Positions 15,494 to 31,115 of a stretch of DNA of 64,000 nucleotides are shown here, one piece after another; the stretch's first letter is position 1, and the number at the start of each line of letters is the position of its first letter. Source of the stretch: Pseudothauera lacus (lineage in GTDB: Bacteria > Pseudomonadota > Gammaproteobacteria > Burkholderiales > Rhodocyclaceae); contig NZ_PZKC01000001.1 of the NCBI RefSeq assembly GCF_003034845.1, forward strand, positions 267,473 through 331,472. The letters run 5' to 3'. The notes beneath the pieces are model-generated. The model saw nothing but the letters and a program-made list of their open reading frames with translations. It was not told the origin of the DNA and did not search any database. The position numbers and the translations under genes were made by a program.

Positions 15494-17038
15494 TCAGCCG
15501 CGGCCTGCAGCCCCGGCGATGCCCGGCTGCTGCGGTGCGTGCAGCGCCTCGATGAGCTGCCTGAGACTGTCCATCCGCTGCGCCCCTGCTCCGCCAAGCT
15601 TGTAGGCCTGGAGCGCGCTCTCCAGGCTTGCGAGCGCTTCCGGGAGCGCCTCGACCAGGCATGAATCGCAAGCTTGCCGACGCTGCATGAGCCCGGCCCT
15701 GGCCAGCAGCGCCATCCCCAGCGCCCGTTGCGCGTCGCCCCAGTCGACCGTCCGGCGCAGCAGGGCTGGTTCGGCGAGCAGCTCACGGTACAGGGCTATG
15801 CCCTCGTCAAGGTGGGCGATGGCACCGTCCGCGTCCGCGTCCGCGCCATCGCTCATTGCCCCTGCGCTGCTCAAGGCCCTGGCCAGCTCGCCATGCACGG
15901 CCAGCCAGCGCAGGGGGGCCTGCGCGCGCGCGGTGTGCTCGCCCGCGGCACGGAGCAGCCCGACGGCCTCGTCGAGATACGCAACCGCCTGTTCCCCGTG
16001 CACGCCACCGGCACCCTCCACGGCCGCGCTGCGCAAGACGGCCCCCAGCATGAAGCGGGTTTCCGCCAGCGCTTCGGGCGCGCCCGAACGGCTGCGCCCG
16101 GCCAGTGCCGTACGCAGCAATGGCCGGGCACCGCCAAGGTCGCCCCGCCAGGCCAGCAACACGCCGGCCTGATGCGCGACCGCCGCACCTTCATCCGGCG
16201 CCCAGCCGGACGGCCACTGTTCGATGAGCGCACGATAACGCTCACCGGCGCCATCGAACGCCCACGCCTCGTCGTGGAGCAGCGCGCGCACGTGGAGGGC
16301 ATTGGCGGCGCGCCAGCGGTAGCTCGCTGCCAGCCCGCCCAGCCCATCGCGCTCGGCGTGCTGCGCGGCGCGCTCGAAGAGCTGCAGCGCCTCGTCATGG
16401 CGGAGCATGGCAAGGAGCAGTTCGCCGTGCAGGCGCAGCACGGGGCTCGTCCGGGCTGGATCGGCAGCGGGGTCGCGCAAGGAATGGGCGAGCAGCCCTT
16501 GCGAAGCCGCAAGGGCCTCGTCGAACTGCCCGGCGGCGAGCGCCGCACCGACCAGCGCAGCTTCTGCCGCCACCGCGCTTGCCCGCGCCTGTCGATAGCC
16601 CGCAGCAGCATTGAGCAGCGCAAACTCCAGCCGCGTCGGCGCCATTTCCGCACCATCGCGCTGCACCGCCCCCTCCGGTATGGCTGCATCGGCAAGCGTC
16701 CTCAGCAGGGCGAACAGGGCAGCATCGCCGATATCTCCAAGCGCGCCGCCGACCTCTGCCAGGGTGCTCAGATCGCTCTCGGCCAGCGCCTCCCGTCCTT
16801 CGCGCGCGGCGCTGACGAGCTGCCGGAGCCGTACTGGATCGACGGGCAGGCGCTGCGTGTGATCGATCAGCCCTACGCTGACAGGGACGGCATCAACCTT
16901 CTCTTCAACGCCGGCAACAACGTCTTGAGTGCCTTGCGGCGCCACCCCGAGGCTGGCGAGAAACCACAGCACCAGGGCGGACAGCGCAATGGTCCACGCC
17001 ACTCCTCCGGCAACAAAGGCAAGCGAATTGAACTTCAT
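15494..17038 (-). CDS. Hypothetical membrane-anchored Ala/Leu-rich protein (514 aa), possibly TPR-like.
   Basis: N-terminal TM (FVAGGVAWTIALSALVLWFLASL), then a long Ala-rich helical domain. It is divergent from the PspA/flotillin operon promoter. Confidence 0.5.
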   Translation of the reverse strand: MKFNSLAFVAGGVAWTIALSALVLWFLASLGVAPQGTQDVVAGVEEKVDAVPVSVGLIDHTQRLPVDPVRLRQLVSAAREGREALAESDLSTLAEVGGALGDIGDAALFALLRTLADAAIPEGAVQRDGAEMAPTRLEFALLNAAAGYRQARASAVAAEAALVGAALAAGQFDEALAASQGLLAHSLRDPAADPARTSPVLRLHGELLLAMLRHDEALQLFERAAQHAERDGLGGLAASYRWRAANALHVRALLHDEAWAFDGAGERYRALIEQWPSGWAPDEGAAVAHQAGVLLAWRGDLGGARPLLRTALAGRSRSGAPEALAETRFMLGAVLRSAAVEGAGGVHGEQAVAYLDEAVGLLRAAGEHTARAQAPLRWLAVHGELARALSSAGAMSDGADADADGAIAHLDEGIALYRELLAEPALLRRTVDWGDAQRALGMALLARAGLMQRRQACDSCLVEALPEALASLESALQAYKLGGAGAQRMDSLRQLIEALHAPQQPGIAGAAGRG

Positions 17039-17282
17039 CGATCAAGCAGGACCTGTAAGGGAGCGCGCAGCTCCGGTCGAAAAAGATGCGCCCGCCGCAC
17101 ACACTGTCGCCCTTGCGGGCGGCGCCCGATCATCTCGCCGGCCCCCCACCCCTGCAGGCCATGGTCATTTCACGGCACCGATCCCGCATCCACGGGACGG
17201 CCGCAGAACGGCCCTGAAGAGAGATTCTTGCGCATGCGCTGCTGGCCACCGCAGACTCCGCTCGCAGGAGCGAAGAAAAGCT

Positions 17283-17311
17283 TTGACATTTTATGTCGCG
17301 AAGCATACATT
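17283..17311 (+). promoter_or_regulatory. Near-consensus sigma70 promoter, TTGACA-N17-TACATT.
   Basis: Read directly. About 38 bp upstream of the yjfI-like ATG (17349). RBS GAAGGAG at 17335-17341. Confidence 0.5.
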
Positions 17312-17348
17312 GCACATGTCATCGACACAACCCTTGAAGGAGTCGCGG

Positions 17349-17765
17349 ATGAAATCGCTGCAGGAACAGATCGCAGGCTTGGACGACGTGCTGAGTGCGC
17401 GCCTCGGTGGCACCGCCGTCAGCCTGCAACCCATCCCCGGCTCGGTGCCGGTGATTCAGGTTGTCATCGGCGGGCGCGAGGAGCTGCCCATCTTCATCAC
17501 CGCCTCGGAAACGCAGGTGCTGTGCATCTGCTATCTGTGGAGCGACGAGGAGGTGCGCGCCGACAAGCGCGCCGAGCTGCTCGAGACCCTGCTCGCCCTC
17601 AATCCGTCCATCCCGCTGTCGGCCTTCGGCCGCATCGACAAGCGCTTCGTGCTGTTCGGCGCGCTGGCCAGCGACGCCCGCGTCGAGGATGTCGCCCAGG
17701 ACGTCATCGCCCTCAGCGACAACGCCCTGGACGCCCTCGAAGCCCTCTCCGCCTACCTCGTCTGA
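17349..17765 (+). CDS. YjfI-like (DUF2170) protein.
   Basis: 138 aa. The internal LCICYLWSDEEV / FVLFGALAS pattern resembles E. coli YjfI. First gene after the promoter. Confidence 0.65.
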   Translation: MKSLQEQIAGLDDVLSARLGGTAVSLQPIPGSVPVIQVVIGGREELPIFITASETQVLCICYLWSDEEVRADKRAELLETLLALNPSIPLSAFGRIDKRFVLFGALASDARVEDVAQDVIALSDNALDALEALSAYLV

Positions 17766-17778
17766 AGGAGACATCACC

Positions 17779-18486
17779 ATGAGCGTGATTGGAAAGATCC
17801 TCACCCTGGTGCGCGGCAGCGCGCGTGAAATCGGCGAGAGCGTGGTCGATGCCAACGCCACCCGCATCTACGAACAGGAAATCGTCGACGCCCGCAACGC
17901 CATCATGAAGGCCAAGAGCGAGCTTACCGGCGTGATGGCCAAGGAAATGCAGAGCGCACGCGAGATCGAGCGCCTGCGCAAGGAAATGATCCGCCTCGAG
18001 AATCTCGCCGTCGAAGCGCTCGACAAGGGCGAGGACGCGCTTGCCGAGGAAGTCGCCGGCAAGGTCGCCGCCTGCGAGGCAGAACTCGAGGAGCAGAGTC
18101 GCGCCCACGCCAACTACGCGCTGCAGGTCGGCAAGCTCAAGGAGCTGATCAAGGCCGCCGAGGGCAAGGTGCGCGAGCATGAGCGCGAGGTGGCCATGGC
18201 ACGCACCACCGAGAGCGTCTACCGCGCCACCCGCTCGATCTCCGACAACATCGGTGCCACCGGCTCCAAGCTGGTCAGTGCGCGCGAATCGCTGGAGCGC
18301 ATCAAGCGCCGCCACGAGGACCTCGCCGACCGCATGGCCGCCGCCGAAGCGCTCGACAAGGAGACCAGCACCCGCGGGCTCGAACAGCGCCTCGCCGAAG
18401 CCGGCATCGGCGGCGACGCCGAGCGCCGCCGGGCAACCATGGAGCGCATCCGTGCGCGCCAGGCGGCCGCGCACAAGGACGCATGA
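17779..18486 (+). CDS. PspA/IM30-family protein (YjfJ-like).
   Basis: 235-aa coiled-coil protein. The C-terminal LAEAGIGG motif and overall pattern match E. coli YjfJ/PspA family. Confidence 0.85.
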   Translation: MSVIGKILTLVRGSAREIGESVVDANATRIYEQEIVDARNAIMKAKSELTGVMAKEMQSAREIERLRKEMIRLENLAVEALDKGEDALAEEVAGKVAACEAELEEQSRAHANYALQVGKLKELIKAAEGKVREHEREVAMARTTESVYRATRSISDNIGATGSKLVSARESLERIKRRHEDLADRMAAAEALDKETSTRGLEQRLAEAGIGGDAERRRATMERIRARQAAAHKDA

Positions 18487-18806
18487 AGACGACCGGCAAG
18501 CCGGCGCGCTGGAAGGACTCCGACGACGCACTGCGCGCCGTTCAGGTGGCCTTCGATGTCGAAGCCCGGGTTCTCGAGGCGGTGCGACGCGCCGCCTTCG
18601 AGAACAACCTGTCGATGCCGGATCAGGTGCGCAACCTGCTGGGGCTGCCGGTCACGCACCGCCCCAAGCGGCCGCGCCTGACCGTCTCGCTGACCCCTGC
18701 GGACTACCAGATGCTGGCCGCACGCTATGGCCTGCCGGCCGACGACCTGCTTGCCATCAAGGAACGCGCGGCCGGCGAGCTGATCGATTTCGCCGACGAT
18801 CAATGA
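18483..18806 (+). CDS. Hypothetical small protein (107 aa), translationally coupled to the pspA-like gene.
   Basis: ATGA overlap with the upstream stop. High GC3. No family recognised. Confidence 0.5.
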   Translation: MKTTGKPARWKDSDDALRAVQVAFDVEARVLEAVRRAAFENNLSMPDQVRNLLGLPVTHRPKRPRLTVSLTPADYQMLAARYGLPADDLLAIKERAAGELIDFADDQ

Positions 18807-18855
18807 GCATGCAGGCAGCCGCAGCGGCACAGGCCTCCTTCACCTGAGAACAGAC

Positions 18856-19488
18856 ATGGGCGACTTCGGTGGCACGCTGACTTCCTTCCCGACCGCCATC
18901 TACACCACGCTGCTCGGCGTGGTGCTGCTGTACTGGCTGCTGGCCCTGTTCGGCCTGGTCGATTTCGAGAACACCGGACCGGATCTCGATCTTGATCTGG
19001 AACTCGACGCCGACGGCGTCGAGGTCGGCTCGCTGGCCCAGCGCATGGTGGCCTTCGGCCTTGGCGGGGTGCCGTTCTCGGTCGTTGTCAGCCTGCTGGT
19101 GCTGATCGCGTGGACCCTCTCCAGCCTCGCGGCGATGTGGGTGCTGCCTCTGCTCCCGGGCATCCTCGCGCTCGCCGCCGGCGCCGTCGTGCTCGTCCTC
19201 GCCGCGGTAGTGGCCATCCCGTTCACCGCCATTGCCATCCGTCCCCTGCGCGGTCTCTTCGTCACCCACGGCGCGGTGCGCAACGCCGCGCTCGTCGGCC
19301 AGACCTGCAAGATCGTCACCGGCACCGTCAGCGAGACCTTCGGCCGCGCCGAAGTGGCCCGCCGTGGCGCCAGCTACAACATCCGCGTCGTCGCCGACAC
19401 GCCCAACACGCTGGTGCGCGGTGCCACCGCGATGATCATCGACTACGACCCCGACAGCGCCCGCTATCGCGTTCAGGCGATCGAGTGA
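18856..19488 (+). CDS. NfeD-like/YqiJ-like (DUF1449) membrane protein, the usual flotillin partner.
   Basis: N-terminal TM helices plus a C-terminal OB-like soluble domain. Sits immediately upstream of the flotillin gene, as in yqiJK. Confidence 0.7.
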   Translation: MGDFGGTLTSFPTAIYTTLLGVVLLYWLLALFGLVDFENTGPDLDLDLELDADGVEVGSLAQRMVAFGLGGVPFSVVVSLLVLIAWTLSSLAAMWVLPLLPGILALAAGAVVLVLAAVVAIPFTAIAIRPLRGLFVTHGAVRNAALVGQTCKIVTGTVSETFGRAEVARRGASYNIRVVADTPNTLVRGATAMIIDYDPDSARYRVQAIE

Positions 19489-19546
19489 GCCTTCCGTTAC
19501 TCCCCTTCCGACTCTCCATCCACCCGGCCATTGCTCAGAGGAAACC

Positions 19547-21658
19547 ATGGAACCCATTTTGATCGCCATCGGCATTCTGGCGTTTTTGATCTTCAGTATG
19601 TTCGCCATGCTGGCCAAGTTCTACCGCAAGGTCGAACAGGGCTACGCCATGATCGTCAACACGCTGAACAGCGAGCCCGACGTCACCTTCACCGGCCGCA
19701 TGGTGTACCCCATCATCCACAAGGCCGAGATGATGGACATCGCCCTCAAGACGGTGGAAATCGACCGTACCGGGCACGACGGCCTGATCTGCCAGGACAA
19801 CATCCGCGCCGACATCAAGGTGAAGTTCTTCGTCCGCGTGAACAAGACCGCCGAGGACGTCCTCAAGGTCGCCCAGGGCATCGGCTGCGCCCGCGCATCG
19901 AACCCGGAAACGCTGGAGGAACTGTTCTCCGCGAAGTTCTCCGAAGCGCTCAAGACCGTCGGCAAGTCGATGGACTTCGTCGAGCTCTACCAGGCCCGCG
20001 ACCGCTTCCGCGACGAGATCATTGCGCAGATCGGTGACGACCTCTCCGGCTACGTCCTCGAGGATGCCGCCATCGACTACCTCGAGCAGACCCCGCTCTC
20101 CAAGCTCGACCCCAGCAACATCCTCGACGCCCAGGGCATCAAGAAGATCACCGAGCTCACCGCGGCCGAGAACGTGCGCACCAACGATCTGCGCCGCAAC
20201 GAGGAAATGCAGATCAAGAAGAAGGACGTCGAGACCCGCGAGGCGCTGCTCGAACTCGAGCGCCAGCAGGCCGACGCCGAAGCACGCCAGCTGCGCGAGG
20301 TCGAATCGGTAAAGGCGCGCGAGCAGGCCGAGACCGCGCGCATCCGTTCCGAGGAGCACGCCAAGGCCGAGCTCGCCCGTCTGCAGACCGAACAGGCCAT
20401 CAGCGTGCAGCAGGAAAACGTCCTGCGCGAGAAGGAAGTGGCCGAGAACAACCGCCTGCGCGCGGTGGCCATCGAGGAAGAAAAGGTCAAGCGCGCCCGT
20501 GAGCTGGAAGTGGTCGACCGCGAGAAGGAGGTCACCCTGCAGCGCATCGACAAGGACCGCGCCGTGGAAGTGCAGAAGAAGGCCATCGCCGACGTCGTGC
20601 GCGAGCGCATTGTTGTCGAACGCACCGTGGCCGAGCAGGAAGAGGCCATCAAGGAACTGCGCGTGGTCGCCGAAGCCGACCGCAAGAAGAAGGCCACCGT
20701 GATCACCGCGGAAGGCACCGCAGAAGAGAACATGATCATGGAGATCAAGGCCGCCGAAGCCCGTGAGCGCCGTGCGCGTCACGCCGCCGCCGAAGAGCTT
20801 ACGCTTGCCGACGCACGCCTCAAGGTGGCCGAACGCCACGCCGAGGCCAAGAAGCGCGAAGCCGAGGGCATGGAAGCCATCGCCGCCGCCAACGGCCTGG
20901 CCGAAGCCCGCGTGCAGATGGTCGCCGCCGACGCCAAGGAGAAGCAGGGCATGGTCGAGGCCAAGGTGCGCATCGCCGAAGCCGAGGCGGTGGCCAAGTA
21001 TGGTCAGGCCGAGGCCGAGGCGCTGCAGGCGCGCCTGACTGCCGAAGCCGACGGCAAGGAGCGCATGGGTCTGGCCGACGTCGGCGTCAAGACCGCCGAC
21101 GCCGATGCCGCGGTGAAGATGGGCCTGGCCGAAGCCCAGGTCATCGAAGCCCGCTTCAACGCCGAGGCCAAGGGCCTGCGCGAGAAGTTCGAAGCCATGA
21201 AGGCGATGAGCGAGGACACCCGCGCGCATGAGGAATTCCGCATGCGCCTGGAGAACGCCCACATCGAAACCATCAAGGCCATCGAAGCACAGACCTCGAT
21301 CGCCCGCGAACAGGCCGACGTGCTTGGCGTCGCGCTGGGCAACGCCCGTATCGACATCGTCGGCGGAGAAGGCGACTACTTCGACCGCTTCGTCAACGCG
21401 CTCTCGGTCGGCAAGGGCATCGACGGCGCCATCGCCAAGAGCAACACCCTGCAGGTCGGGCTGAAGGACCACCTCACCGGCAAGCGCGACATGGTCAGCG
21501 ACGTTCGCGACGTCGTCGGCGCGCTGGGCAGTGCCTCAGGGGAATTGCAGAACCTGTCGGTGGCCGCGCTGCTCACCAAGGTCCTGCGCGACGGCAACGA
21601 CAGCCAGAAAGCCGCCCTGCAGACCCTGCTCGACGGTTTCCGCGGCGCCAAGGCTTGA
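19547..21658 (+). CDS. Flotillin family protein (SPFH/band-7, YqiK-type).
   Basis: N-terminal TM. SPFH domain. Long Ala/Glu/Lys/Arg-rich coiled coil (EAEA... repeats). 703 aa. Confidence 0.9.
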   Translation: MEPILIAIGILAFLIFSMFAMLAKFYRKVEQGYAMIVNTLNSEPDVTFTGRMVYPIIHKAEMMDIALKTVEIDRTGHDGLICQDNIRADIKVKFFVRVNKTAEDVLKVAQGIGCARASNPETLEELFSAKFSEALKTVGKSMDFVELYQARDRFRDEIIAQIGDDLSGYVLEDAAIDYLEQTPLSKLDPSNILDAQGIKKITELTAAENVRTNDLRRNEEMQIKKKDVETREALLELERQQADAEARQLREVESVKAREQAETARIRSEEHAKAELARLQTEQAISVQQENVLREKEVAENNRLRAVAIEEEKVKRARELEVVDREKEVTLQRIDKDRAVEVQKKAIADVVRERIVVERTVAEQEEAIKELRVVAEADRKKKATVITAEGTAEENMIMEIKAAEARERRARHAAAEELTLADARLKVAERHAEAKKREAEGMEAIAAANGLAEARVQMVAADAKEKQGMVEAKVRIAEAEAVAKYGQAEAEALQARLTAEADGKERMGLADVGVKTADADAAVKMGLAEAQVIEARFNAEAKGLREKFEAMKAMSEDTRAHEEFRMRLENAHIETIKAIEAQTSIAREQADVLGVALGNARIDIVGGEGDYFDRFVNALSVGKGIDGAIAKSNTLQVGLKDHLTGKRDMVSDVRDVVGALGSASGELQNLSVAALLTKVLRDGNDSQKAALQTLLDGFRGAKA

Positions 21659-21796
21659 GCCTTGCCGGCATGCTCCTGACCGCGCGGCTCACCGGGCCTG
21701 CCGGGCAGGGCGTGCCACGCCTGACGAACTTCTCGCACTGATCTCCAGCGCACGCTGACCCTGGCGGCCACCCGCGGGTGGCCGGGAGAACCCGAT

Positions 21797-24700
21797 ATGT
21801 CCGAGCACGCTCAAGGCCCCGACGCAACCGAGGCCCTGGTTGCCGAGAGCAGCAGTTACGAGCTGCTCAAGCGGCGACTGTCCGACCTGGGCGGTCATCT
21901 GCAACGCAAGACGCGGGCGCTCAACGACGCCCGCCTCGCCGAGTTCGGCCGTGCCGAGCAGGCGCTCATCGCGCGCACCCGCGCGCGCACCGAGAACAAC
22001 TGCATCGCCCGCGACCTGGTGCGCATCGGCGACGTGCTGCTGTTCGGCTACAACGTCTTCATCGGCCTGCGCAAGGAGACCGCGGTCGCCGATGTCTTCG
22101 GCCTGTATCGCCTCGGCGAGGACGGCGAGGGCGATCTCGAAGCGGTGGCGCTGGAGGGCAGCTTTCTCGACGACGCGCGCTTCACCGCCGATTTCCGCGA
22201 GCTCTATACCTACTACCGCCAGGCCAGCCTGATCCAGTTGCGGGTGCACCAGCACAAGCTGCTGGCGGCCTTCCAGATCGGCCAGCAGGCCACCGACCTG
22301 CGGGTGTTCCGCTGGAACATCGGGCCGGACGGCATGCTGAGCTACATCGACAACCGCGGCGAGCGCGACATCGCGCTGCCCGCGACCCACGACTTCGAGT
22401 GGACCCAGACCACCCGCGAGAACCATGTCGGCGGTCGTCACCCGCACATCAACATTCTCGACACCGTCTTCGTCGAGACCGTCGGCGGCGATCTCACGAT
22501 CAAGATCGAGAACAACACCGAGAGCGGGCTGGGCATCTACTCCGAGCCGGTCGAGGACAAGAGCCAGTCGCTCACCGACGCCGAGGTCGCCTACGCGCGC
22601 ATCGGTTCGCTGATCCTGCTGCGCATCCGCCCCTACCGCGAGCGCGACGAGCGCTACCTGGTGTTCAACACCCGCACCCTCAGCGCCACCCGCATCGACG
22701 CCATCGGACGCTCGTGCATCCAGTTGCCCGAAGACCACGGCATCATCTTTCCGGGCGGCTACTATCTGCAGTCCGGCGAAACCAAACGCTTCGACCTGCC
22801 CGCCGAGATGCGCGACGGCCTGCGCTTCAAGCGCATGCAGCGCTCGCCCAACGGCGAGGACGTGCTCTACGTCTTCTACCAGCCCGGGCTTGGCCACTAC
22901 GCGCTGTTCTCCTACAACCTGATCGAGAAGTCGCTGTCCACGCCGATTCTGTGCAATGGCTATGCGCGCTTCGACGACGGGCGCATGCTGGTCTTCCAGG
23001 CCGAGGGGCCGGAGCCGACCCGCAACCATCCGATGCAGCTGTGGCAGACGCCGTTTGCCAGCGACGAGCATGCCGCCGCCCACCAGGAGGTCCAGGGCTT
23101 TTTCGGCCGCATCGGCAATCCCGAACTGGTACGCGGCATTGCCGAGCTGACCGGCATCACCCGCGCGGTCGCCGAGCAGACCCCCACGCGCAATGCCTAC
23201 GAAGCCCTCATCCGCCAGTGCGGGCGGGCGCTCGATGCCTACTTCTGGCTCGATTCGGACGAGGCCGGCAAGCTCGACGAAGACATCCGCGCCATCATGG
23301 AAGGCGCGCGCCACACCCTCGACGAATTCGAGAAGATCGAGAGCATCCGCCGCGACACCGCCCAGGCACTGAGCGAGGCCGAGCTGCGCCAGCGCGAGCT
23401 GATGACCGACATCGCCAGCATGATGTGGCACGCGCCCGACGACTTCGTGCGGGCGCTCGGTCGCCTGCGCGAGCAGCGCGGCCGCCTGCAGGCCATGCGC
23501 GAGCTGCGCTACGCCGATCTGACGCGCATCGGCGAGCTCGAAGCCACCGTCGACGAGGAGCAGGGGCGGGTCTCCGAGCGCGCGCTGAACTTCCTTGCCG
23601 ACGAGCACGCCTTCGACGGCTACCGCAAGTCGCTCGACGAGATCGCCGCCGCCCTGCCGCACGCCACCAACAGCACGGAGATCGCCGAGCAGGTCAAGGC
23701 GCTCGACAGCACCGGTGCCGGCCTCGACCTGCTCACCGAACAACTGGGCAACCTGCCGGGCGGCGATGCCGTCATCCGCACCCGCATCCTCGACGGCATC
23801 GGCGGCGTGTATGCCGAGGTCAACCGCCTGCGCGCCGAGGCCCGCAGCCGCGCCCGCGCGCTTGGCAGCGTCGAGGCCGCGGCCGAGTTCGGCGCGCAGA
23901 TCCAGCTCTTCGGACAGGCCGTCGAGAACGCGCTGGAACTGGCCGATACGCCGGAAAAGTGCGACGACGCCCTCACCCGCCTGCTCGGCCAGCTCGAGGA
24001 CATCGAAGCCCGCTTCGCCGACCAGGACGCCTTCATCGAGACCCTGGCCAACAAGCGCGAGTCGGTGGTCGAAGCGGTGGCGGCACGCCGCCAGACCCTC
24101 ACCGAGGCCCGCCAGCGCCGCAGCCAGGCGCTGGTCGATGCCGCCTCGCGCGTACTCGACGGCGTTCCGCGCCGGGTCGCCCAGTTCAACGATCTGCCGC
24201 AGGTGCACAGCTATTTCGCCGGTGATCCGCTGCTCGCCAAGCTGCGCAGCCAGATCGACGAACTGCGCGCGCTGGGCGCCAACGTCGCCGCCGACGATCT
24301 CGACACCCGCCTGCGTGCTGCGCGCGACCAGGCGGTGCGTGCGGTACGCGACCGCCGCGAGCTCATCGCCGAGGACGGCAACACCCTGCGCTTTGGCCGC
24401 CACGCCTTCACCGTCAACCGTCAGACGCTCGACCTCACCCTGGTCCCGCGGCAGGGCGGGCTGGCCTACCACCTCACCGGCACCGACTACTTCGCGCCGC
24501 TCGACGACCCCCGGCTGGACACCCTCAAGGCCTGGTGGGACGTGCCGCTGGTGTCGGAGAGCGACACCCTCTACCGCGCCGAATACCTCGCCGGCACGTT
24601 GCTGGCCGACGCCCTCGACGGGCATGGCGAGCAGGACTGGGCCCAACTGCAGGCGCTCGCCGCGGCCGAGGATGGCCAGCCGCTTGCCGATCTGGTCCGG

Positions 24701-26995
24701 CGCAGCAGCGCGAGCCGCTACCAGGAAGGCTATCAGCGCGGCGTTCATGACCACGATGCCACCCTCATCCTGCAGGCCCTGATCGGCATGCAGGCCGGCG
24801 CGCAACTGCTCGCCCACGGGCCGCAGGCCCGCGCCCTGGCCTTCTGCTGGTGGCACTTCGGCGCCTTCGAGGACGAGCGTGCGAGCCTGCTCCGGCTGGC
24901 CCGCGCGGCGGTGCAGATGAATGCGCTCTTCGCCCACCGCGAGGCGCTGGCGCGCGCCGAACACGACGCCGCGCAGACGCTCGCTGTTTTCGCGCCAAAG
25001 TTCGGCTTTGCCGACGATGCCGCGCTGGTCGGCGAGGCCGCCCAGTATCTCGTCCGCCAGCTCGCCGAGCCGCGCGGCGCCGAGGCCTGGGTTATCTCCG
25101 GTGCCGGCGCCACCCTCGCCGAAGACCTGCAGCGCCAGCTCGAGCGTCACGGCCAGCTCGCCACCCTGCACGCCGACCTCGCGGCCGCGGCGCCGCCCGA
25201 GCGCTGGCGGCTCGCCCGCCAATGGACGGCCGCCTTCGCCGCTGGGCAGGACGGCGCGCTGGCCTGGGAGGCCGACGCCGCCACCGCCTTGTTGAGCGAC
25301 GGCGAACGCCAGCGCGTCAACGTCGAGCTCGACGCGGTGGTCGAGGGTCTGCGCGGCGAACACCCGCGCCTTGCCGACGGCCGCCTCACCCTCAACCTCA
25401 ACGACTTCTGGCAACGCCTGCGCCGTCATCGCAGCGTCCAGGTGCCGGCCTTCGAACGCCTGCAGGCGCTGCGCCTGGAGATCGTCGACAGCGAGAAACG
25501 CCGCCTGCATCTCGACCAGTTCCGCGCCCGTCCGCTGTCGAGCTTTGTGCGCAACCGGCTCATCGACGAGGTCTATCTGCCCATCATCGGCAACAACCTC
25601 GCGCGCCAGATCGGCGCCGCCGGCGATGCCAACCGCAGCGACCGCTCCGGTCTCCTGCTGCTGATCTCGCCGCCCGGCTACGGCAAGACCACGCTGATGG
25701 AGTATGTTGCCGACCGCCTCGGCATGATCTTCGTGCGCATCAACTGCCCCGCGCTCGGCCATGACGTCACCGCCATCGACCCGGCCGGCGCCACCCACAG
25801 TGCCGCCCGCCAGGAGCTGGAAAAGCTCAACCTCGGCCTGGCGATGGGCAACAACGTCATGCTCTACCTGGACGACATCCAGCACACCAATCCGGAGTTC
25901 CTGCAGAAGTTCATCGCGCTGGCCGACGGTACCCGCCGCATCGAGGCGGTGCGCAACGGCGAACCCTGGACCGCCGACCTCCGTGGCAAGCGCTTCGCGG
26001 TGGTGATGGCGGGTAACCCCTACACCGAGTCCGGCGACGTCTTCCGCATTCCCGACATGCTCGCCAACCGCGCCGACATCTACAACCTCGGCGACGTGCT
26101 GGCCGGGCGTGAAGACCTCTTCGCGCTGTCCTACATCGAGAACTGCCTGACCTCCAACCCGCTGCTGCTGCCGCTGTCGTCCCGCGATCCGGCCGACGTG
26201 CACCGTCTGGTGCGCATGGCCGAAGGCGAGGACATCGCGGACAGCGCCTTCAGCCACGGATACAGCACGGCCGAACTCAACGAACTGGCCAATCTCGTCC
26301 GCCGCCTGTTCCGTGCCCGCGACCTGCTGCTCAAGGTCAACCTCGCCTACATCGAATCCGCCGCGCAGGACGACGCCTACCGCAACGAGCCGCCCTTCAA
26401 GCTCCAGGGCAGCTACCGCAACATGACCAAGCTCGCCACTGCCATCACTCCCTTGATGCGCGACGACGAGCTCGACGCCCTGTTGCGCGACCACTACCGC
26501 GGCGAAGCGCAGACGCTGACCAGCGGTGCCGAGGAGAACCTCCTCAAGCTCGCCGACCTGCTCGGCAGCCAGACCCCGGACGAAACCGCGCGCTGGCAGG
26601 AGATCAAGGAAGAGTTCGTGCGCCGTCGCAAGCTGGGCGGCGACGATGCCGACGGCAGCACCCGCATCGCCGGCACCCTGATCGACATCGCCCGTGCGGT
26701 CGAAGGGCTGCGCCAGGGTCCGGCGATGGAAGACAGCCTGCGCGCGGGACTGGAGGAAATCAGCAAGGGGCTGCGCGCGCTGCAACCGCGCATTGAGGTC
26801 GCAGCGCCGGATACGAGCGAATTCGCCACCGCTCTGCGCGAGATGCACGAAACCTTCGACAAGGTGCTGGTGCCGCTGGTTACCGCCACCTATCGCAAGA
26901 TGCGCATGGACCACTCCATGTGGGAGGACATGAAGCGCATGAGTGGTCTGATCCAGCGTATGGAACGACTCATCGCCCCACCCGCCGGGGAATGA
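21797..26995 (+). CDS. Giant (1732 aa) protein. Uncharacterised N-terminal ~1270 aa, then a C-terminal AAA+ ATPase module of the MoxR/dynein-like (AAA_5) type.
   Basis: Walker A LLLISPPGYGKTTL. Walker B VMLYLDDIQH. Sensor-1 FAVVMAGNPY. Last gene of the pspA-like/flotillin operon. Uniform coding-like codon usage over 5.2 kb. Confidence 0.85.
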   Translation: MSEHAQGPDATEALVAESSSYELLKRRLSDLGGHLQRKTRALNDARLAEFGRAEQALIARTRARTENNCIARDLVRIGDVLLFGYNVFIGLRKETAVADVFGLYRLGEDGEGDLEAVALEGSFLDDARFTADFRELYTYYRQASLIQLRVHQHKLLAAFQIGQQATDLRVFRWNIGPDGMLSYIDNRGERDIALPATHDFEWTQTTRENHVGGRHPHINILDTVFVETVGGDLTIKIENNTESGLGIYSEPVEDKSQSLTDAEVAYARIGSLILLRIRPYRERDERYLVFNTRTLSATRIDAIGRSCIQLPEDHGIIFPGGYYLQSGETKRFDLPAEMRDGLRFKRMQRSPNGEDVLYVFYQPGLGHYALFSYNLIEKSLSTPILCNGYARFDDGRMLVFQAEGPEPTRNHPMQLWQTPFASDEHAAAHQEVQGFFGRIGNPELVRGIAELTGITRAVAEQTPTRNAYEALIRQCGRALDAYFWLDSDEAGKLDEDIRAIMEGARHTLDEFEKIESIRRDTAQALSEAELRQRELMTDIASMMWHAPDDFVRALGRLREQRGRLQAMRELRYADLTRIGELEATVDEEQGRVSERALNFLADEHAFDGYRKSLDEIAAALPHATNSTEIAEQVKALDSTGAGLDLLTEQLGNLPGGDAVIRTRILDGIGGVYAEVNRLRAEARSRARALGSVEAAAEFGAQIQLFGQAVENALELADTPEKCDDALTRLLGQLEDIEARFADQDAFIETLANKRESVVEAVAARRQTLTEARQRRSQALVDAASRVLDGVPRRVAQFNDLPQVHSYFAGDPLLAKLRSQIDELRALGANVAADDLDTRLRAARDQAVRAVRDRRELIAEDGNTLRFGRHAFTVNRQTLDLTLVPRQGGLAYHLTGTDYFAPLDDPRLDTLKAWWDVPLVSESDTLYRAEYLAGTLLADALDGHGEQDWAQLQALAAAEDGQPLADLVRRSSASRYQEGYQRGVHDHDATLILQALIGMQAGAQLLAHGPQARALAFCWWHFGAFEDERASLLRLARAAVQMNALFAHREALARAEHDAAQTLAVFAPKFGFADDAALVGEAAQYLVRQLAEPRGAEAWVISGAGATLAEDLQRQLERHGQLATLHADLAAAAPPERWRLARQWTAAFAAGQDGALAWEADAATALLSDGERQRVNVELDAVVEGLRGEHPRLADGRLTLNLNDFWQRLRRHRSVQVPAFERLQALRLEIVDSEKRRLHLDQFRARPLSSFVRNRLIDEVYLPIIGNNLARQIGAAGDANRSDRSGLLLLISPPGYGKTTLMEYVADRLGMIFVRINCPALGHDVTAIDPAGATHSAARQELEKLNLGLAMGNNVMLYLDDIQHTNPEFLQKFIALADGTRRIEAVRNGEPWTADLRGKRFAVVMAGNPYTESGDVFRIPDMLANRADIYNLGDVLAGREDLFALSYIENCLTSNPLLLPLSSRDPADVHRLVRMAEGEDIADSAFSHGYSTAELNELANLVRRLFRARDLLLKVNLAYIESAAQDDAYRNEPPFKLQGSYRNMTKLATAITPLMRDDELDALLRDHYRGEAQTLTSGAEENLLKLADLLGSQTPDETARWQEIKEEFVRRRKLGGDDADGSTRIAGTLIDIARAVEGLRQGPAMEDSLRAGLEEISKGLRALQPRIEVAAPDTSEFATALREMHETFDKVLVPLVTATYRKMRMDHSMWEDMKRMSGLIQRMERLIAPPAGE

Positions 26996-26998
26996 TCC

Positions 26999-28780
26999 TC
27001 AGAACGGCCAGATCAGCGGAATCACAGCCACCGCCACCACCCACATGAGCAGGTTGAGGGGGATGCCGATGCGCAGGAAGTCGGTGAAGCGGTAGCCCCC
27101 GGCGTTGTACACGAAGGTGTTGGTCTGGTAGCCGATCGGGGTGGCGAAGCTCGCACTGGCGGCGAACATCACCGCCACCACGAAGGGGCGCGGATCGACG
27201 CCGAGCTGCAGCGCCAGGCCGATGGCGATCGGCGTGATCAGCACCGCCACGGCGTTGTTCGACAACACCTCGGTGAGCACCGAGGTGAACAGGTAGATGA
27301 AGGCCAGCATCATCAGCGGCGTGGCCCACGGCGCGGCAGTGGTCACGCTGCCGACGATCAGGCTCACCAGGCCGACCTTGTCCATGGCGATGCTGATCGC
27401 CAGCATGCCGAAGATCAGCGACAGGATCTTCCAGTCCACGGCCTTGTAGGCATCCTCGACGTCCAGGCAGTTGCTCACCAGCACCACCGCGGCAGCGATC
27501 AGCGCGAGGCCTTCGATGGGCATCACCTTCAGCGCGGCGAGCAGCATCACCGACAGCGTGGCGACGATGGCGATCGGCGCCTTGTCGCGCCGGTAGGCGC
27601 GTTCCTGCACGTCATTGAGGCTGATCAGGTCGCCGTTGTCGGCAAAGCGCTTGATCTGCCCGGCGGTGCCTTCGACCAGCATCACGTCGCCGAACTGAAG
27701 CTGGAAGTCGTCGAGGTTGCTCTGGATGTTCTCGTCCTGGCGGTGCACCGCCAGCACCGCGATGCCGTAGCGCGCGGTGAGGTCGAGGTCGCGCATCGGG
27801 CGGTGCACATAGCGCGAGTTGCGCCCGACGATGGCCTCCACCAGCATGACGTCGCGCATCGCTATGGTCTCGAAGGCATGACCGCGCGAAAACTCGAGCT
27901 TGCCCGATTCACGCAGCTCCACCACGTCGCGCACGGTGGTGTGCAGCACCAGGCGGTCGCCGGCTTCCAGCAAGGTGGTGTTGGGCGGCTCGGTGATCAC
28001 CTCGTCGCCGCGGAACAGCTTCAGCACCTGCAGGCCGGCCTTGCCGTTGAGGTTGGCGTCGGCGATGCTCCTCCCGGCCATCGGCGAATCCCGCGGCACC
28101 AGCAGCTCGCTCATGAAGGTGCGCGCGAGGTTGGGACGCAGGGTGCGCGACAGGGTGTCGCGCGCCGGCAGCAGGCGCTGACCGAACAGCATGATGAAGA
28201 GGAAGCCGGTGGTGGCCAGCGCCAGCCCGGCCAGGGTGATCTCGAACATCCCGAAGGGTTCCAGACCCTGCTTGCGCGCCACGCCATCGACGAGAATGTT
28301 GGTCGAGGTGCCGATCATGGTCAGCGTGCCGCCGAGGATCGTCGCGTAGGAGAGCGGGATCAGCAGCTTGGAGGGCAAGGTATCCGAGCGCCGCGCCAGG
28401 GCGATCGCCACCGGCGTGAGGATGACCACCACCGGGGTGTTGTTGATGAAGGTGGAGATCAGGATCGCCACCAGCATCAGCCCGCCCAGCAGGCGCACCG
28501 GGCTGTCACCGACCAGGCGCGCCAGCCAGTTGCCGAGCACCTCGACGCAGCCGGTGCGCTCCAGCGCGGCGGAAAGCACGAACATGCAGGCGATGGTCAG
28601 CGGCGCCGGGTTGGAGAGTACCGACAGCACCTCGGCGGGGGTCAGCAACTGGGCCGCCAGCAACGCGGCCACGGCAGCGCCGGCCACCACGTCGGGGCTG
28701 CGCTTTTCGCGCAGGAAAGCCACCAGCACGGCGACTATCACCAGCACGACAAAAGGCAGCGCGTAGGAATCGGGGAGCAT
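26999..28780 (-). CDS. SLC13/DASS-family permease with two central TrkA-C domains.
   Basis: About 593 aa. Hydrophobic N- and C-terminal halves flank TrkA-C-like segments (GKAGLQVLKLFRGDEV...). Confidence 0.8.
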   Translation of the reverse strand: MLPDSYALPFVVLVIVAVLVAFLREKRSPDVVAGAAVAALLAAQLLTPAEVLSVLSNPAPLTIACMFVLSAALERTGCVEVLGNWLARLVGDSPVRLLGGLMLVAILISTFINNTPVVVILTPVAIALARRSDTLPSKLLIPLSYATILGGTLTMIGTSTNILVDGVARKQGLEPFGMFEITLAGLALATTGFLFIMLFGQRLLPARDTLSRTLRPNLARTFMSELLVPRDSPMAGRSIADANLNGKAGLQVLKLFRGDEVITEPPNTTLLEAGDRLVLHTTVRDVVELRESGKLEFSRGHAFETIAMRDVMLVEAIVGRNSRYVHRPMRDLDLTARYGIAVLAVHRQDENIQSNLDDFQLQFGDVMLVEGTAGQIKRFADNGDLISLNDVQERAYRRDKAPIAIVATLSVMLLAALKVMPIEGLALIAAAVVLVSNCLDVEDAYKAVDWKILSLIFGMLAISIAMDKVGLVSLIVGSVTTAAPWATPLMMLAFIYLFTSVLTEVLSNNAVAVLITPIAIGLALQLGVDPRPFVVAVMFAASASFATPIGYQTNTFVYNAGGYRFTDFLRIGIPLNLLMWVVAVAVIPLIWPF

Positions 28781-28895
28781 CGGGGGCAGGCATGTCCGTT
28801 GGCGCCGCCACGGTGCGGCGCACAAAAGATAGCCTCAGCCCTTTATACAGTCCAAGACTGTTTATTGATTTCCTTATAACTGAGAACTCTATTCT

Positions 28896-31115
28896 TCAGG
28901 ATGCTTCACCGCCAGGTGGACGGGCCTTGAAGGCCTGCAGGTAGTCGCCCATCTCCGCGGCCGGCAATGGGCGGCTGATCAGGTAACCCTGGATGGCATC
29001 GCAGCCGAAGCTGCGCAGCATGGCGGCCTGGCCGTCTTCCTCGACCCCCTCGGCAACCACCTCCAGCCCCAGCCCGTGTCCGAGGGCGATGACCGCCTTG
29101 ACGATGGAGGCGCTGCCGGTGCTGCTGAGCATGCCGCGGACGAAGGACATATCGACTTTCAGGCGGTCCACGTCGATCTGCTGCAGATAGGACAGCGAGG
29201 AGTAGCCGGTGCCGAAGTCGTCGATCGACAGCCCGATACCCTGCCCCTTGAGTTCGGCAAGCGCCTGCAGGGCCTGCGCGCGCTCGGCAAGCAGCACGCT
29301 CTCGGTGATCTCCACTTCAAGCAGCGTTGCCGGGATGCCGCTGGCCGTCAGCGCTGCGCCCACCGCGCTGGCGACCTGCCCGCGGCTGAACTGTACGGCG
29401 GAGACATTCACCGCCACCCGCGGCGCCTGCAAGCCGGCATCGAGCCAGGCGCGCACCTGCCGGCAGGCTTCGTGGATCACCCACTCGCCGAGCGGCACGA
29501 TGAGACCGCTGTCTTCGGCCAGTGGAATGAACTCCGCCGGAGAGACGCTGCCAAGCTGCGGGTGCTGCCAGCGCGCCAGTGCCTCCAGGCCGACCAGGGC
29601 ACCGCTGCAGAGGTCGACCTGGGGCTGGTAATGGAGGGCCAGCTGCCCCTCTGCCAGGGCCTCGCGCAGGCCCGCCTCCAGACGCAGGCGGCCGCGCGCA
29701 CGCGCGGTGATCTCCGGGGCAAAGAAGCGCAGACCGCCCCGCCCCTGGGCCTTGGCCTCGCGCAATGCCGCCTCGGCACTGCTCTGCAGGGTTTCGACGC
29801 TGCGCCCGTCGGCCGGATAGAGGGCCACGCCGACACTGGCGCCGACATACACCGTATGCCCGTCGATGGCGAAAGGTACCGCCAGCTCGTCGATCATGCG
29901 CTGCGCCAGCAGGTCCGGCGCCAGCCCCTCGCCGAGCTGGACGACGATGGCGAACTCGTCGCCGCCGATGCGGGCAATGGCGTCACCGTCGGGAACCAGC
30001 GCCTTCAGGCGCTTGCCGATCCCGCCAAGCAGGGTGTCTCCACAGCGATGGCCGAAGCTCTCGTTGATGGTCGTGAAGTTGTCCACATCCACGTACAGCA
30101 GCGCCAGCCCGCCACTGTCGTTGCGCTCGGCGAGCATCAGTTCGTGGGCGAGGATCTCGCCGAAGAGGACACGGTTGGGGAGGCCGGTAAGGGCGTCGCG
30201 ATAGGTCAGGAAGCGGTACTTCTCCTCGCTGACCTGCAGCATCGCGGTACGCTGGGCGAGCAGATCCTCAAGGAAGCGACGCAGGCGGGAAAGCTCCAGA
30301 TGGGTGCGGATGCGTGCCCGTACCTCATCGATGTCGAAGGGCTTGCTGATGAAGTCCGCCGCCCCCAGTTCAAAGCCGCGCACCTTGTCGGCCGGGGCGT
30401 CGATGACAGTGACGAAGAGCACCGGAATACGGTTGCCGCCCACCGTCTCCTTGATGCGGCGGCAGACTTCGTAGCCGTCCATCTCCGGCATCACCACGTC
30501 GAGGAGGACCAGATCCGGCGGCGTCTCACCATGAACGATCTCCAGCGCCCGCGCTCCGGAGCGCGCCACCATGATGCGGTACTCGTCCTTGAGTACCTCG
30601 ATCAGGCCATGGATGTTCTCGGGGACGTCGTCCACCACCAGCAGCGCCGGCGGCTCGCCCGGACGCAGGCGGGCGCTGACGTCGAGCAGCAGCGGATGGG
30701 AGCGGTAGCGGCGCAGCTCCAGCAGGTTGCGCATGCGCGCCTTGAGCAGGCCGGGATTGACCGGCTTGGTGATGTAGTCGGCAACGCCCAGCTGCAGACC
30801 GCGCGCCTCGTCGGCGGCATCGTCGAGGGCGGTGACGAAGATCACCGGGATGTCGGCGGTGGCCGCATCCACCTTCAGCGCCGAGAGCACCGAGTAGCCG
30901 TCCATGCCGGGCATGCGGATGTCGAGCAGGATGAGCTCGGGCGGCGGCACGCGGCGCGCCAGTTCCAGCGCCTTCTCGCCGCTGGTGGCGGCGGAGAGGG
31001 CGAACTCGTCGCCGAGGATGCCCTTCAGCGCATGCAGGTTCTCGGGCACGTCGTCGACGATCAGCACCCGCGGACGCTGGCCCCTGTCCTCCTGTTGTGC
31101 GTACTCGCTCATCAC
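28896..31115 (-). CDS. Response regulator with two REC domains plus GGDEF and EAL domains.
   Basis: Two (L/V)IVDD...D(I/V)(R/V)MP REC cores. [10 protein letters not shown] (GGDEF). EAL motifs ([15 protein letters not shown]). ATGA-coupled to the upstream hybrid kinase. Confidence 0.85.

Follow-up and report, generated by a model that had tools for sequence, protein, structure and literature searches.

Operons that combine PspA, a flotillin and a large ATPase have been described before. In the excerpts of their article on which we draw here, Ravi et al. (mSystems 2024, PMC11237479; bioRxiv 2020) report an operon class composed of CesT/Tir-PspA, band-7/flotillin, AAA+ and YqiJ/YuaF components, in which the AAA+ protein has a coiled coil and a beta-propeller, and they also mention "abbreviated" flotillin-YqiJ-ATPase operons. 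The second described system is the biofilm-associated cluster bacABCDEF of Pseudomonas aeruginosa (PA3732-PA3727; PA14_16140-16200), which forms a single transcript by RT-PCR, is stress-inducible, responds to phage and osmotic stress, and affects biofilm formation, swarming, rhamnolipids and virulence. All Bac proteins rise together in a bacA mutant, and PA3728-PA3732 were up-regulated in every phage-infected P. aeruginosa sample. The Arc antagonism-resistance clusters of P. aeruginosa do not include the bac locus, PA3729 being only a background protein in the pull-downs.

The Pseudothauera lacus operon consists of six co-directional genes (g1 to g6) at positions 17349-26995 on the + strand of the 64-kb stretch of DNA analyzed here, which we refer to as the window (Table 1). 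The six translations are all identical to the consecutive P. lacus proteins PTD98077-PTD98082 at NCBI. The successive junctions from g1 to g6 measure 13, -4, 49, 58 and 138 bp, the start codon of g3 overlapping the stop codon of g2 (ATGA), and both bordering genes lie on the opposite strand. No terminator-like sites were found on the + strand within the operon, and the g5-g6 spacer folds no better than shuffled sequence (z -0.94). A preliminary description of this DNA had proposed six co-directional genes with short or overlapping junctions, encoding a YjfI-like (DUF2170) protein, a YjfJ-like PspA/IM30 protein, an unexplained 107-aa protein, an NfeD/YqiJ-like protein, a YqiK-type flotillin and a giant AAA+ protein, and hence a YjfI/PspA module united with an SPFH/NfeD pair and a large ATPase. 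The layout agrees with the open reading frames and the NCBI proteins, and the union of the modules holds by Pfam matches and profile comparisons. This confirms that the six genes form a real operon, in which a membrane-repair module based on PspA is combined with a flotillin scaffold and a giant ATPase.

Table 1. Positions of the operon genes, the promoter region and the bordering genes in the window.
Feature	Position	Strand	Length	Remark
TPR-like protein gene (upstream flank)	15494-17038	opposite
Sigma-70-type promoter, TTGACA-N17-TACATT	17283-17311	+		38 bp 5' of g1 start
Palindrome GACATTTTATGTC (GACAT-N3-ATGTC), candidate operator	17285-17297		13 bp	overlaps -35 hexamer
g1	17349-17765	+	138 aa
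g2	17779-18486	+	235 aa
g3	18483-18806	+	107 aa
g4	18856-19488	+	210 aa
g5	19547-21658	+	703 aa
g6	21797-26995	+	1732 aa
CitMHS/TrkA_C transporter gene (downstream flank)	26999-28825	opposite		stop codon 3 bp from g6 stop

As far as the excerpts of Ravi et al. go, all five component types of their class are shared by P. lacus in one co-directional cluster, namely DUF2170, a YjfJ-family PspA, a flotillin with a TM segment, an SPFH domain and a coiled coil, a giant AAA+ protein, and a YqiJ-type protein with three TM segments; their "abbreviated" operons were recovered here too. Unlike that class, as it appears in the same excerpts, the P. lacus window contains no HKD phospholipase D gene, and the excerpts make no mention of the 107-aa gene encoding a ribbon-helix-helix (RHH)-like protein, of the Zn-ribbon gene that accompanies the operon in many relatives, or of the promoter and its candidate operator. 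A homologue of this Zn-ribbon gene was not found in the window. According to the published descriptions, five of the six components also correspond between P. lacus and the bac cluster, whose order DUF2170 (BacA), PspA (BacB), short NfeD (BacC), SPFH (BacD, PaFlo3) and ATPase (PA3728) equals that of g1, g2, g4, g5 and g6. For g3, no counterpart has been reported in the bac cluster, whose additional sixth gene, bacF, is absent from the P. lacus operon. Moreover, the promoter proposed for bac is sigma-54-dependent, whereas that of P. lacus is a conserved sigma-70-type promoter with a palindrome; a -24/-12 site (TGGCAC-N5-TTGCW-like, at most two mismatches) was not found between positions 17040 and 17349. 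The view that the combination matches no described system therefore fails, since the class of Ravi et al. and the bac cluster had already been described. In E. coli the homologues are YjfI (g1), YjfJ (g2), YqiJ (g4) and YqiK (g5), with the same order within each pair. The yjfIJ and yqiJK pairs lie 1.2 Mb apart in K-12, yjfIJ being joined to polyamine-related genes (yjfIJKLMC) and yqiJK having no adjacent ATPase gene, which bears out the earlier statement that the pairs are separate loci and neither is linked to a giant ATPase. It should be noted that g5 exceeds YqiK by 150 aa in length, and that the similarity between g4 and YqiJ is remote.

The g1 protein, which is of the DUF2170/YjfI/BacA type, matches Pfam DUF2170 (PF09938; 3e-26, 92.2 bits, cutoff 27), the DUF2170 family protein in PDB entry 8q8o (E 2.8e-6) and E. 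coli YjfI (E 2e-8), and the literature assigns DUF2170 a CesT/Tir-like chaperone fold. Its score against the NCBIfam BacA equivalog model NF050185 is 46.3 bits for a cutoff of 300, and the match covers only positions 84-202 of the 206 in the profile; judged by its sequence, g1 is a member of the DUF2170 family and not an equivalog of Pseudomonas BacA. The g2 protein is a YjfJ-like PspA/IM30 protein of the ESCRT-III superfamily, with a match to Pfam PspA_IM30 (PF04012) over residues 5-223 (3.6e-31, 108.9 bits, cutoff 33.9) and, in an alignment of 213 aa, 28% identity (E 1e-20) to YjfJ of E. coli. Both assignments are as initially proposed.

The identities of g4 and g5 emerged only from profile comparisons with wider families, searches of Pfam, NCBIfam and PDB with single sequences or close-family profiles having given no informative matches, and it is solely through the comparisons with YqiJ and YqiK that the proposed NfeD/YqiJ-like protein and YqiK-type flotillin are confirmed. 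Neither protein has a match in Pfam, and a match to NfeD (PF01957) or DUF1449 is absent from g4 as well as from 52 diverse members of its family. The broad profile of these 52 members aligned with E. coli YqiJ over 145 columns (96.2%, E 2.6e-9), a profile of intermediate width did so with E 4.3e-4, and that of the close family was negative. In addition, the g4 profile matched a Hymenobacter "DUF1449 family protein" (99.2%) and the pQBR103 counterpart (99.8%). Encoded directly 5' of the SPFH gene g5, g4 is a YqiJ-type (short NfeD/DUF1449-like) membrane protein of about three TM segments, with hydrophobic stretches at residues 11-38 and 63-136 and a C-terminal soluble domain that, according to the NCBI name ("OB-fold-containig protein") and the literature, is an OB-fold. 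The g5 protein has the layout of a YqiK-type flotillin, with an N-terminal TM/hydrophobic segment (residues 1-26), an SPFH domain and a long Ala/Glu-rich helical region, the sequence being rich in Ala, Glu, Lys and Arg from about 215 to 560; it is named "flotillin family protein" at NCBI. Although g5 did not match Pfam Band_7 even at E 10, nor any PDB sequence, its family profile aligned by hhalign with E. coli YqiK (99.7%, E 1.3e-26; residues 9-423 with YqiK 16-420), and its pQBR103 counterpart, which is 46% identical, does match Band_7 (9.3e-11, 42.5 bits, cutoff 23.6).

The giant protein g6 is composed of DUF3686 (aa 35-483; Pfam 1e-198), DUF7902 (aa 604-687), a long helical middle region, a single AAA+ module (approximately aa 1280-1440) and a helical tail. 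Several AAA-clan models of Pfam score above their cutoffs (AAA, 29.6 bits for a cutoff of 21.2; AAA_22, 28.7 for 27; AAA_5, 24.4 for 22), and the P-loop SPPGYGKTT, the Walker B motif LYLDDIQH and the sensor-1 motif AGN are invariant, GYGKT, LYLDD and AGN being unchanged across 17 homologues, which agrees with the AAA_5 part of the MoxR/dynein-type assignment proposed initially for this 1732-aa protein. The Walker A lysine is K1297, and the Walker B motif has DD, at D1359 and D1360, rather than DE. A further motif, NPxxExGxxxxIPxxxxNR, we take to resemble the MoxR consensus. MoxR ATPases usually have a VWA-domain partner gene; no VWA-domain gene was found in the operon by Pfam, and Pfam searches did not find nuclease, protease, toxin or DNA-binding domains either. 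For the predicted model of the AAA+ module, Foldseek ranked NorQ and CbbQ, both of the MoxR type, at the top, interspersed with RuvB, Skd3, MCM and Lon, but the C-terminal model is of low confidence (pLDDT 58) and derives from a shallow alignment of 9 sequences. The placement of g6 in an AAA+ clade is therefore tentative: in this model the classical clade of FtsH and Vps4 seems more distant from the module than the MoxR (NorQ/CbbQ) or RuvB types do. The homologues number more than 7000 and carry the names "DNA repair ATPase" or "MoxR-like ATPase", and identity across four phyla is 42-51%. In the library searched, no paper came up for "DUF3686" in full text, so that the name "DNA repair ATPase" has no supporting study in that library; the name is unsupported by the evidence examined.

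Upstream of g1, the promoter is the sole sigma-70-like match in 10.8 kb, where 0.6 would be expected by chance, and taken alone this match is weak evidence. However, a perfect TTGACA with a -10-like hexamer precedes g1 in 58 of 58 related loci, with spacers of 16-18 nt (17 nt in 55), so that the near-consensus sigma-70 promoter proposed initially holds. The palindrome overlies the -35 hexamer in all 58 relatives. It occurs once in the window, and in 59 related loci it is confined to the promoter position, in one copy or in two tandem copies that are mostly 15 bp apart, and is found nowhere else across about 1.6 Mb. The 8 loci that have no g1-g3 do not contain it, and a locus that has g3 without g1 and g2 (L014) keeps it 5' of g3. 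As for g3 itself, Pfam, NCBIfam and PDB sequences gave nothing useful with the single sequence or the close-family profile, Foldseek found no significant match in PDB for the predicted model, in which the putative first strand is part of a long helix, and hhalign found no internal repeat between the two halves. Single-chain double RHH DNA-binding proteins are represented by TraY of the F plasmid, AvtR of a lipothrixvirus and the engineered single-chain Arc; g3 has no significant sequence similarity to these and its Foldseek comparisons are non-significant. The 107-aa protein, which the preliminary description left unexplained and which has 2264 homologues, is conserved and probably a single-chain double RHH DNA-binding regulator. 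Taken together, a palindrome on the -35 hexamer and a conserved RHH-like protein suggest that the operon may be autorepressed via g3 at this candidate operator. Both the small putative DNA-binding protein and the conserved palindrome look new.

Membrane scaffolds or polymers paired with a dedicated AAA+ machine are known from the HflK/C cage with the protease FtsH, and from ESCRT-III with Vps4. These precedents, as analogies only, are the basis for the remodelling model that we favor. On a stressed membrane, g2 would polymerize like other PspA/ESCRT-III proteins, and g1 would keep it soluble and non-polymerized; g5, together with g4, would build an SPFH scaffold or cage at the cytoplasmic face of the inner membrane. 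The giant g6, with its single AAA+ module, would oligomerize and dock through its putative beta-propeller and coiled-coil N-terminal part on the flotillin assemblies, and possibly on those of PspA, using ATP to remodel these or take them apart. In Betaproteobacteria, the operon would be read from the strong sigma-70 promoter, which g3 probably represses by binding over the -35 hexamer. Unlike FtsH and Vps4, g6 has neither a protease domain nor an MIT domain, and carries one AAA+ module on 1732 aa. On balance, we consider it fairly probable that the P. lacus operon belongs to the known, widespread class for inner-membrane stress or remodelling and acts in the proposed manner. The most specific form of the model, in which g6 is the dedicated motor of the flotillin cage, and of PspA polymers where g1 and g2 are present, with a double-RHH autorepressor as the switch in Betaproteobacteria, is a tentative idea.

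The distribution of the genes bears on whether the two halves of the operon work together. Full colinearity of the six genes with short gaps was kept in 57 of 67 betaproteobacterial loci, and synteny is thus widely conserved; the restriction to this genome that would have counted against the preliminary description is not observed. The other possibility is that the PspA module (g1-g3) and the flotillin-NfeD-ATPase module (g4-g6) are independent and merely share a promoter, the ATPase serving the flotillin system only and PspA working by itself. Consistent with such independence, g4-g6 occur without g1-g3 in 8 of the 67 loci as well as in Streptomyces, Deinococcus, Proteus and Vibrio, the DUF2170-PspA pair has other partners in yjfIJKLMC of E. 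coli, and plasmid pQBR103 joins PspA/polyamine genes to g4-g6 in another arrangement. The g4-g5-g6 core, which recurs in Hymenobacter in addition to these four genera, has g1 and g2 upstream in many Proteobacteria and some Bacteroidota, and the flotillin gene lies directly 5' of g6 in every examined context with upstream sequence, except in one locus (L008) and a rearranged one (L007). The invariant partnership is that of flotillin, NfeD and ATPase, and PspA is an add-on. Complete independence nevertheless seems doubtful to us: besides the colinear set in most betaproteobacterial loci, the joining of PspA, flotillin and ATPase is seen again in Bacteroidota, where the CesT/Tir family is another one, the Bac proteins of P. 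aeruginosa come from one transcript and respond jointly to loss of bacA, and, according to the title of PMC8581546, an SPFH protein links PspA of B. subtilis to the membrane.

A role in envelope defence against phages or competitors, with the giant ATPase as sensor or effector, would fit the induction of PA3728-PA3732 by phage and the presence of operon copies on large plasmids (pQBR103 and plasmids of Deinococcus, Streptomyces and Hymenobacter), but we consider it unlikely, since phage induces PspA systems as a general membrane-stress response, the operon proteins gave only weak coiled-coil or P-loop matches to PADLOC defence models (E at least 0.0048), no nuclease, protease or toxin domains were found, and the neighboring genes are of a housekeeping type. 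Furthermore, most relatives have the operon, and its sequence is highly conserved (54-81% across betaproteobacterial orders, in addition to the values for g6 across phyla), unlike patchy defence islands. That g6 is a DNA-repair ATPase unrelated to its neighbors, as the Pfam text for DUF3686 ("ATPase involved in DNA repair"), the NCBI name and weak similarities to RuvB might indicate, is very improbable, because the RuvB scores are sub-threshold (16-17 bits for cutoffs of about 280-300) and involve the P-loop only, DNA-binding and nuclease domains were not found, the library search yielded no DUF3686 paper, and g6 keeps its place directly 3' of the flotillin gene. We have therefore rejected both readings.

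In summary, the P. lacus operon does not reveal a new system, the combination being known already, and what is apparently new is g3 with its palindrome. The operon class to which it belongs hard-wires flotillins and PspA-type ESCRT-III proteins to a very large, highly conserved AAA+ protein. If the remodelling model is true, g6 would be a Vps4- or FtsH-like partner of these proteins that is conserved from Actinomycetota to Bacteroidota. The simple circuit predicted for Betaproteobacteria, consisting of an RHH protein and a palindromic operator, could serve as a handle for finding the inducing signal.

The operon g1-g6 is a further member of an already described operon class, and not a new system. 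Its genes are separated by 13, -4, 49, 58 and 138 bp, and their translations are identical to six Pseudothauera lacus NCBI proteins with consecutive accessions (PTD98077-PTD98082), in line with the preliminary description of six co-directional genes with short or overlapping junctions. Both flanks contain minus-strand genes, and g1-g6 therefore constitute a self-contained unit. The product of the divergent upstream gene is hydrophobic at its N-terminus and matches TPR_12 weakly, with a score below the cutoff (22.9 versus 30.1 bits). At the other end, the stop codons of g6 and the transporter gene are 3 bp apart, and no terminator-like site was found between these two genes.

Genes of the operon and its flanks (positions in the window)
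Gene	Position	Strand	NCBI name or product	Remark
Upstream gene	15494-17038	-	514-aa Ala-rich TPR-like protein	divergent
g1	17349-17765	+	DUF2170 family
g2	17779-18486	+	PspA/IM30 family
g3	18483-18806	+	hypothetical
g4	18856-19488	+	OB-fold-containing
g5	19547-21658	+	flotillin family
g6	21797-26995	+	DNA repair ATPase
Transporter gene	26999-28825	-	CitMHS-type transporter, two TrkA_C domains	convergent with g6
RR-GGDEF-EAL gene	28896-31115	-	response-regulator-GGDEF-EAL protein	downstream of g6

The family assignments first made for g1, g2, g4 and g5 (YjfI-, YjfJ-, NfeD/YqiJ- and YqiK-like, respectively) were confirmed. g1 matches Pfam DUF2170 (3e-26), E. coli YjfI and the solved DUF2170 structure PDB 8q8o (E 2.8e-6), and g2 matches Pfam PspA_IM30 (3.6e-31) and shares 28% identity with E. 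coli YjfJ across its whole length (E 1e-20). Sequence searches of Pfam, NCBIfam and PDB gave no match for g4 and g5, even at E 10, and their assignment comes from profile comparisons. A g5 profile of 30 orthologues matched residues 16-420 of E. coli YqiK with 99.7% probability (E 1.3e-26). For g4, close-family profiles gave no match to YqiJ, but a profile built from 52 diverse representatives of the family did (96.2%, E 2.6e-9), colinear across 145 columns. Clustered at 50% identity, the g4 family comprises 1676 clusters. The predicted topologies, i.e. hydrophobic segments within residues 11-136 followed by a soluble C-terminal part for g4, and a single N-terminal anchor for g5, fit these assignments.

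Using g6 as seed, we fetched 80 betaproteobacterial loci (Rhodocyclales, Burkholderiales and Chitinibacteraceae), 67 of which had at least 5.6 kb of upstream sequence and were used for counting gene order. Conservation of the full six-gene order is real and broad: g1-g6 are colinear in 57 of the 67 loci, eight contain only g4-g5-g6, and two are rearranged or empty. Homologues of g6 (42-51% identity over >90% of the length) are also present on replicons of Pseudomonas fluorescens (pQBR103), Deinococcus, Streptomyces, Nonomuraea, Halomonas, Photobacterium, Vibrio, Proteus and Hymenobacter. In all six of these replicons examined a g5 homologue lies directly upstream of g6, and a g4 homologue was detectable upstream in four of them. 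The Hymenobacter plasmid has the order CesT_Tir_1 chaperone, PspA, "DUF1449 family protein" (99.2% against the g4 profile), flotillin-like protein and ATPase. Based on the upstream gene content in the betaproteobacterial loci and these replicons, the invariant core is the NfeD-like protein, the flotillin and the giant ATPase, with the chaperone-PspA pair as a frequent add-on.

In the g5-g6 spacer, a perfect 20-nt palindrome with the halves CGGCCACCCG and CGGGTGGCCG is located at 21765-21784, just 5' of the g6 ribosome-binding site; compared with shuffled sequence, the 138-bp spacer as a whole shows no better folding (z -0.94). A ~181-aa protein with CxxC motifs (Pfam Zn_ribbon_TFIIB, E 1e-7 to 3e-6) is encoded between the flotillin and ATPase genes in 54 of 74 related loci (L002:9381-9929, L051:9392-9937 and 52 others). 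This gene is absent from 21659-21796 and from 20 relatives, and no homologue is present anywhere in the window.

The possibility that the combination was undescribed did not hold. Ravi et al. (mSystems 2024, first posted 2020; PMC11237479) report CesT/Tir(DUF2170)-PspA operons with three further components, including a 3TM protein of the YqiJ/YuaF type, as well as more widely distributed, abbreviated flotillin-YqiJ-ATPase operons. On pQBR103 (L082, 85112-97641), PspA, rhomboid protease, DUF2491, DUF350, DUF1190 and glutathionylspermidine synthase genes, which correspond to the E. coli yjfJKLMC-type set, are directly followed by g4-like, SPFH and giant ATPase genes; this hybrid operon unites on one plasmid the two PspA operon classes of that study.

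The operon also resembles the P. aeruginosa biofilm-associated cluster bac (PA3732-PA3729, later widened to the six genes bacA-F), which is one transcript by RT-PCR, with a proposed sigma-54 promoter; Bac proteins are 6- to 13-fold more abundant when bacA is mutated, and bac mutants are defective in biofilm formation, swarming, rhamnolipid production and virulence (PMC2587700, PMC10948618). PA3730/PA14_16160 is called a short NfeD protein and PA3729/PA14_16180 the SPFH protein PaFlo3 (PMC13086221), PA3728 is listed as an ATPase (PMC8190622), PA3728-32 are induced on phage infection (PMC12041424), and a BacA-BacB complex is predicted by AlphaFold (PMC13092808). Matched by these published descriptions, bacA-E appear to correspond to g1, g2, g4, g5 and g6. 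g1 scores far under the NCBIfam BacA equivalog cutoff. The region upstream of g1 contains no sigma-54 site; regulation here is therefore unlike that proposed for bacA.

The near-consensus sigma-70 promoter noted earlier, TTGACA-N17-TACATT at 17283-17311, is the sole sigma-70-like match in 10.8 kb (0.6 expected by chance), which alone is not compelling; comparison with relatives makes it so. All 58 relatives have, 5' of g1, a perfect TTGACA and a -10-like hexamer, with a spacer of 16-18 nt between them (17 nt in 55). Apart from these elements, conservation in this region is limited to one block, TTGACATnnTATGTC. This block holds the palindrome GACAT-N3-ATGTC, which overlaps the -35 hexamer and occurs once in the 64-kb window (17285-17297). 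In 59 related loci (~1.6 Mb) the palindrome occurs at the promoter position only, either singly or as a tandem pair (mostly with 15-bp spacing), and none of the eight loci without g1-g3 contains it. A second copy directly 5' of the first, 15 bp centre to centre (e.g. L001:5427-5454), is found in the related loci L001-L005, L011-L013, L016, L029, L031, L064, L068, L072-L074 and L080, mostly from Rhodocyclales and Chitinibacteraceae; in the window it is degenerate (gaagaaaagct).

g3 is present in every full-length relative; in an alignment of 29 sequences its mean column identity is 73%, and the segments AVQVAFDVE and RPRLTV do not vary. It is separated from g1 and g2 in one locus only, the betaproteobacterial MAG locus L014 (1230-1787), where the operon is g3-g4-g5-g6 and the promoter-like sequence and palindrome are kept about 150 bp 5' of g3. 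Some of its 2264 homologues bear the UniRef name "RHH CopG domain-containing", and AlphaFold2 modelled g3 with good confidence (pLDDT 86). g3 has no Pfam match, Pfam RHH families gave sub-threshold matches to a minority of family members, Foldseek returned nothing significant with the model, and comparison of the two halves of g3 was negative. Because these tests are mixed, g3 is a probable, not a proven, double-RHH DNA-binding protein. The simplest reading is that g3 would repress the operon that encodes it by blocking access to the -35 hexamer.

g6 matches DUF3686 (1e-198, aa 35-483) and DUF7902 (aa 604-687) in Pfam and contains one AAA+ module (aa about 1283-1413; AAA, AAA_22 and AAA_5 each just over the cutoff). 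Across 17 homologues, no variation occurs in the P-loop (SPPGYGKTT), Walker B (LYLDDIQH) or sensor-1 (AGN) motifs. The Walker B motif (25871-25876, D1359-D1360) reads hhhhDD instead of the usual DE in all 17. The model of residues 1215-1732 is of low confidence (pLDDT 58; AAA+ core 70-84), its best Foldseek matches being NorQ and CbbQ (MoxR-type), with RuvB, Skd3/ClpB, MCM and Lon. The original "MoxR/dynein-type" label is plausible rather than established. The VWA partner gene usual for MoxR ATPases is absent here.

To explain the observed genes, families, linkage, promoter and palindrome, we propose that g4 and g5 would assemble into an SPFH scaffold at the inner membrane, and that g2, chaperoned by g1, would build ESCRT-III-like polymers on stressed membrane. 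The single AAA+ module of g6 would mediate its oligomerisation, and the large N-terminal part would allow g6 to remodel flotillin and perhaps PspA assemblies, by analogy with HflK/C-FtsH and ESCRT-III-Vps4; g3 would set the expression level. We consider this explanation reasonably probable overall, with high confidence in the classification and much lower confidence in the ATPase role. The main rival, in which the PspA module (g1-g3) and the flotillin-NfeD-ATPase module (g4-g6) are neighbors that work independently, seems rather doubtful. A defense system is quite improbable, PADLOC giving no meaningful match, and DNA repair still more so: the database name of g6 suggests it, yet this name has no traceable experimental basis, and a search of the full-text library for "DUF3686" found no paper. 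g3 and the promoter palindrome appear to be new, and the predicted RHH-operator circuit would be a small, new and testable addition.
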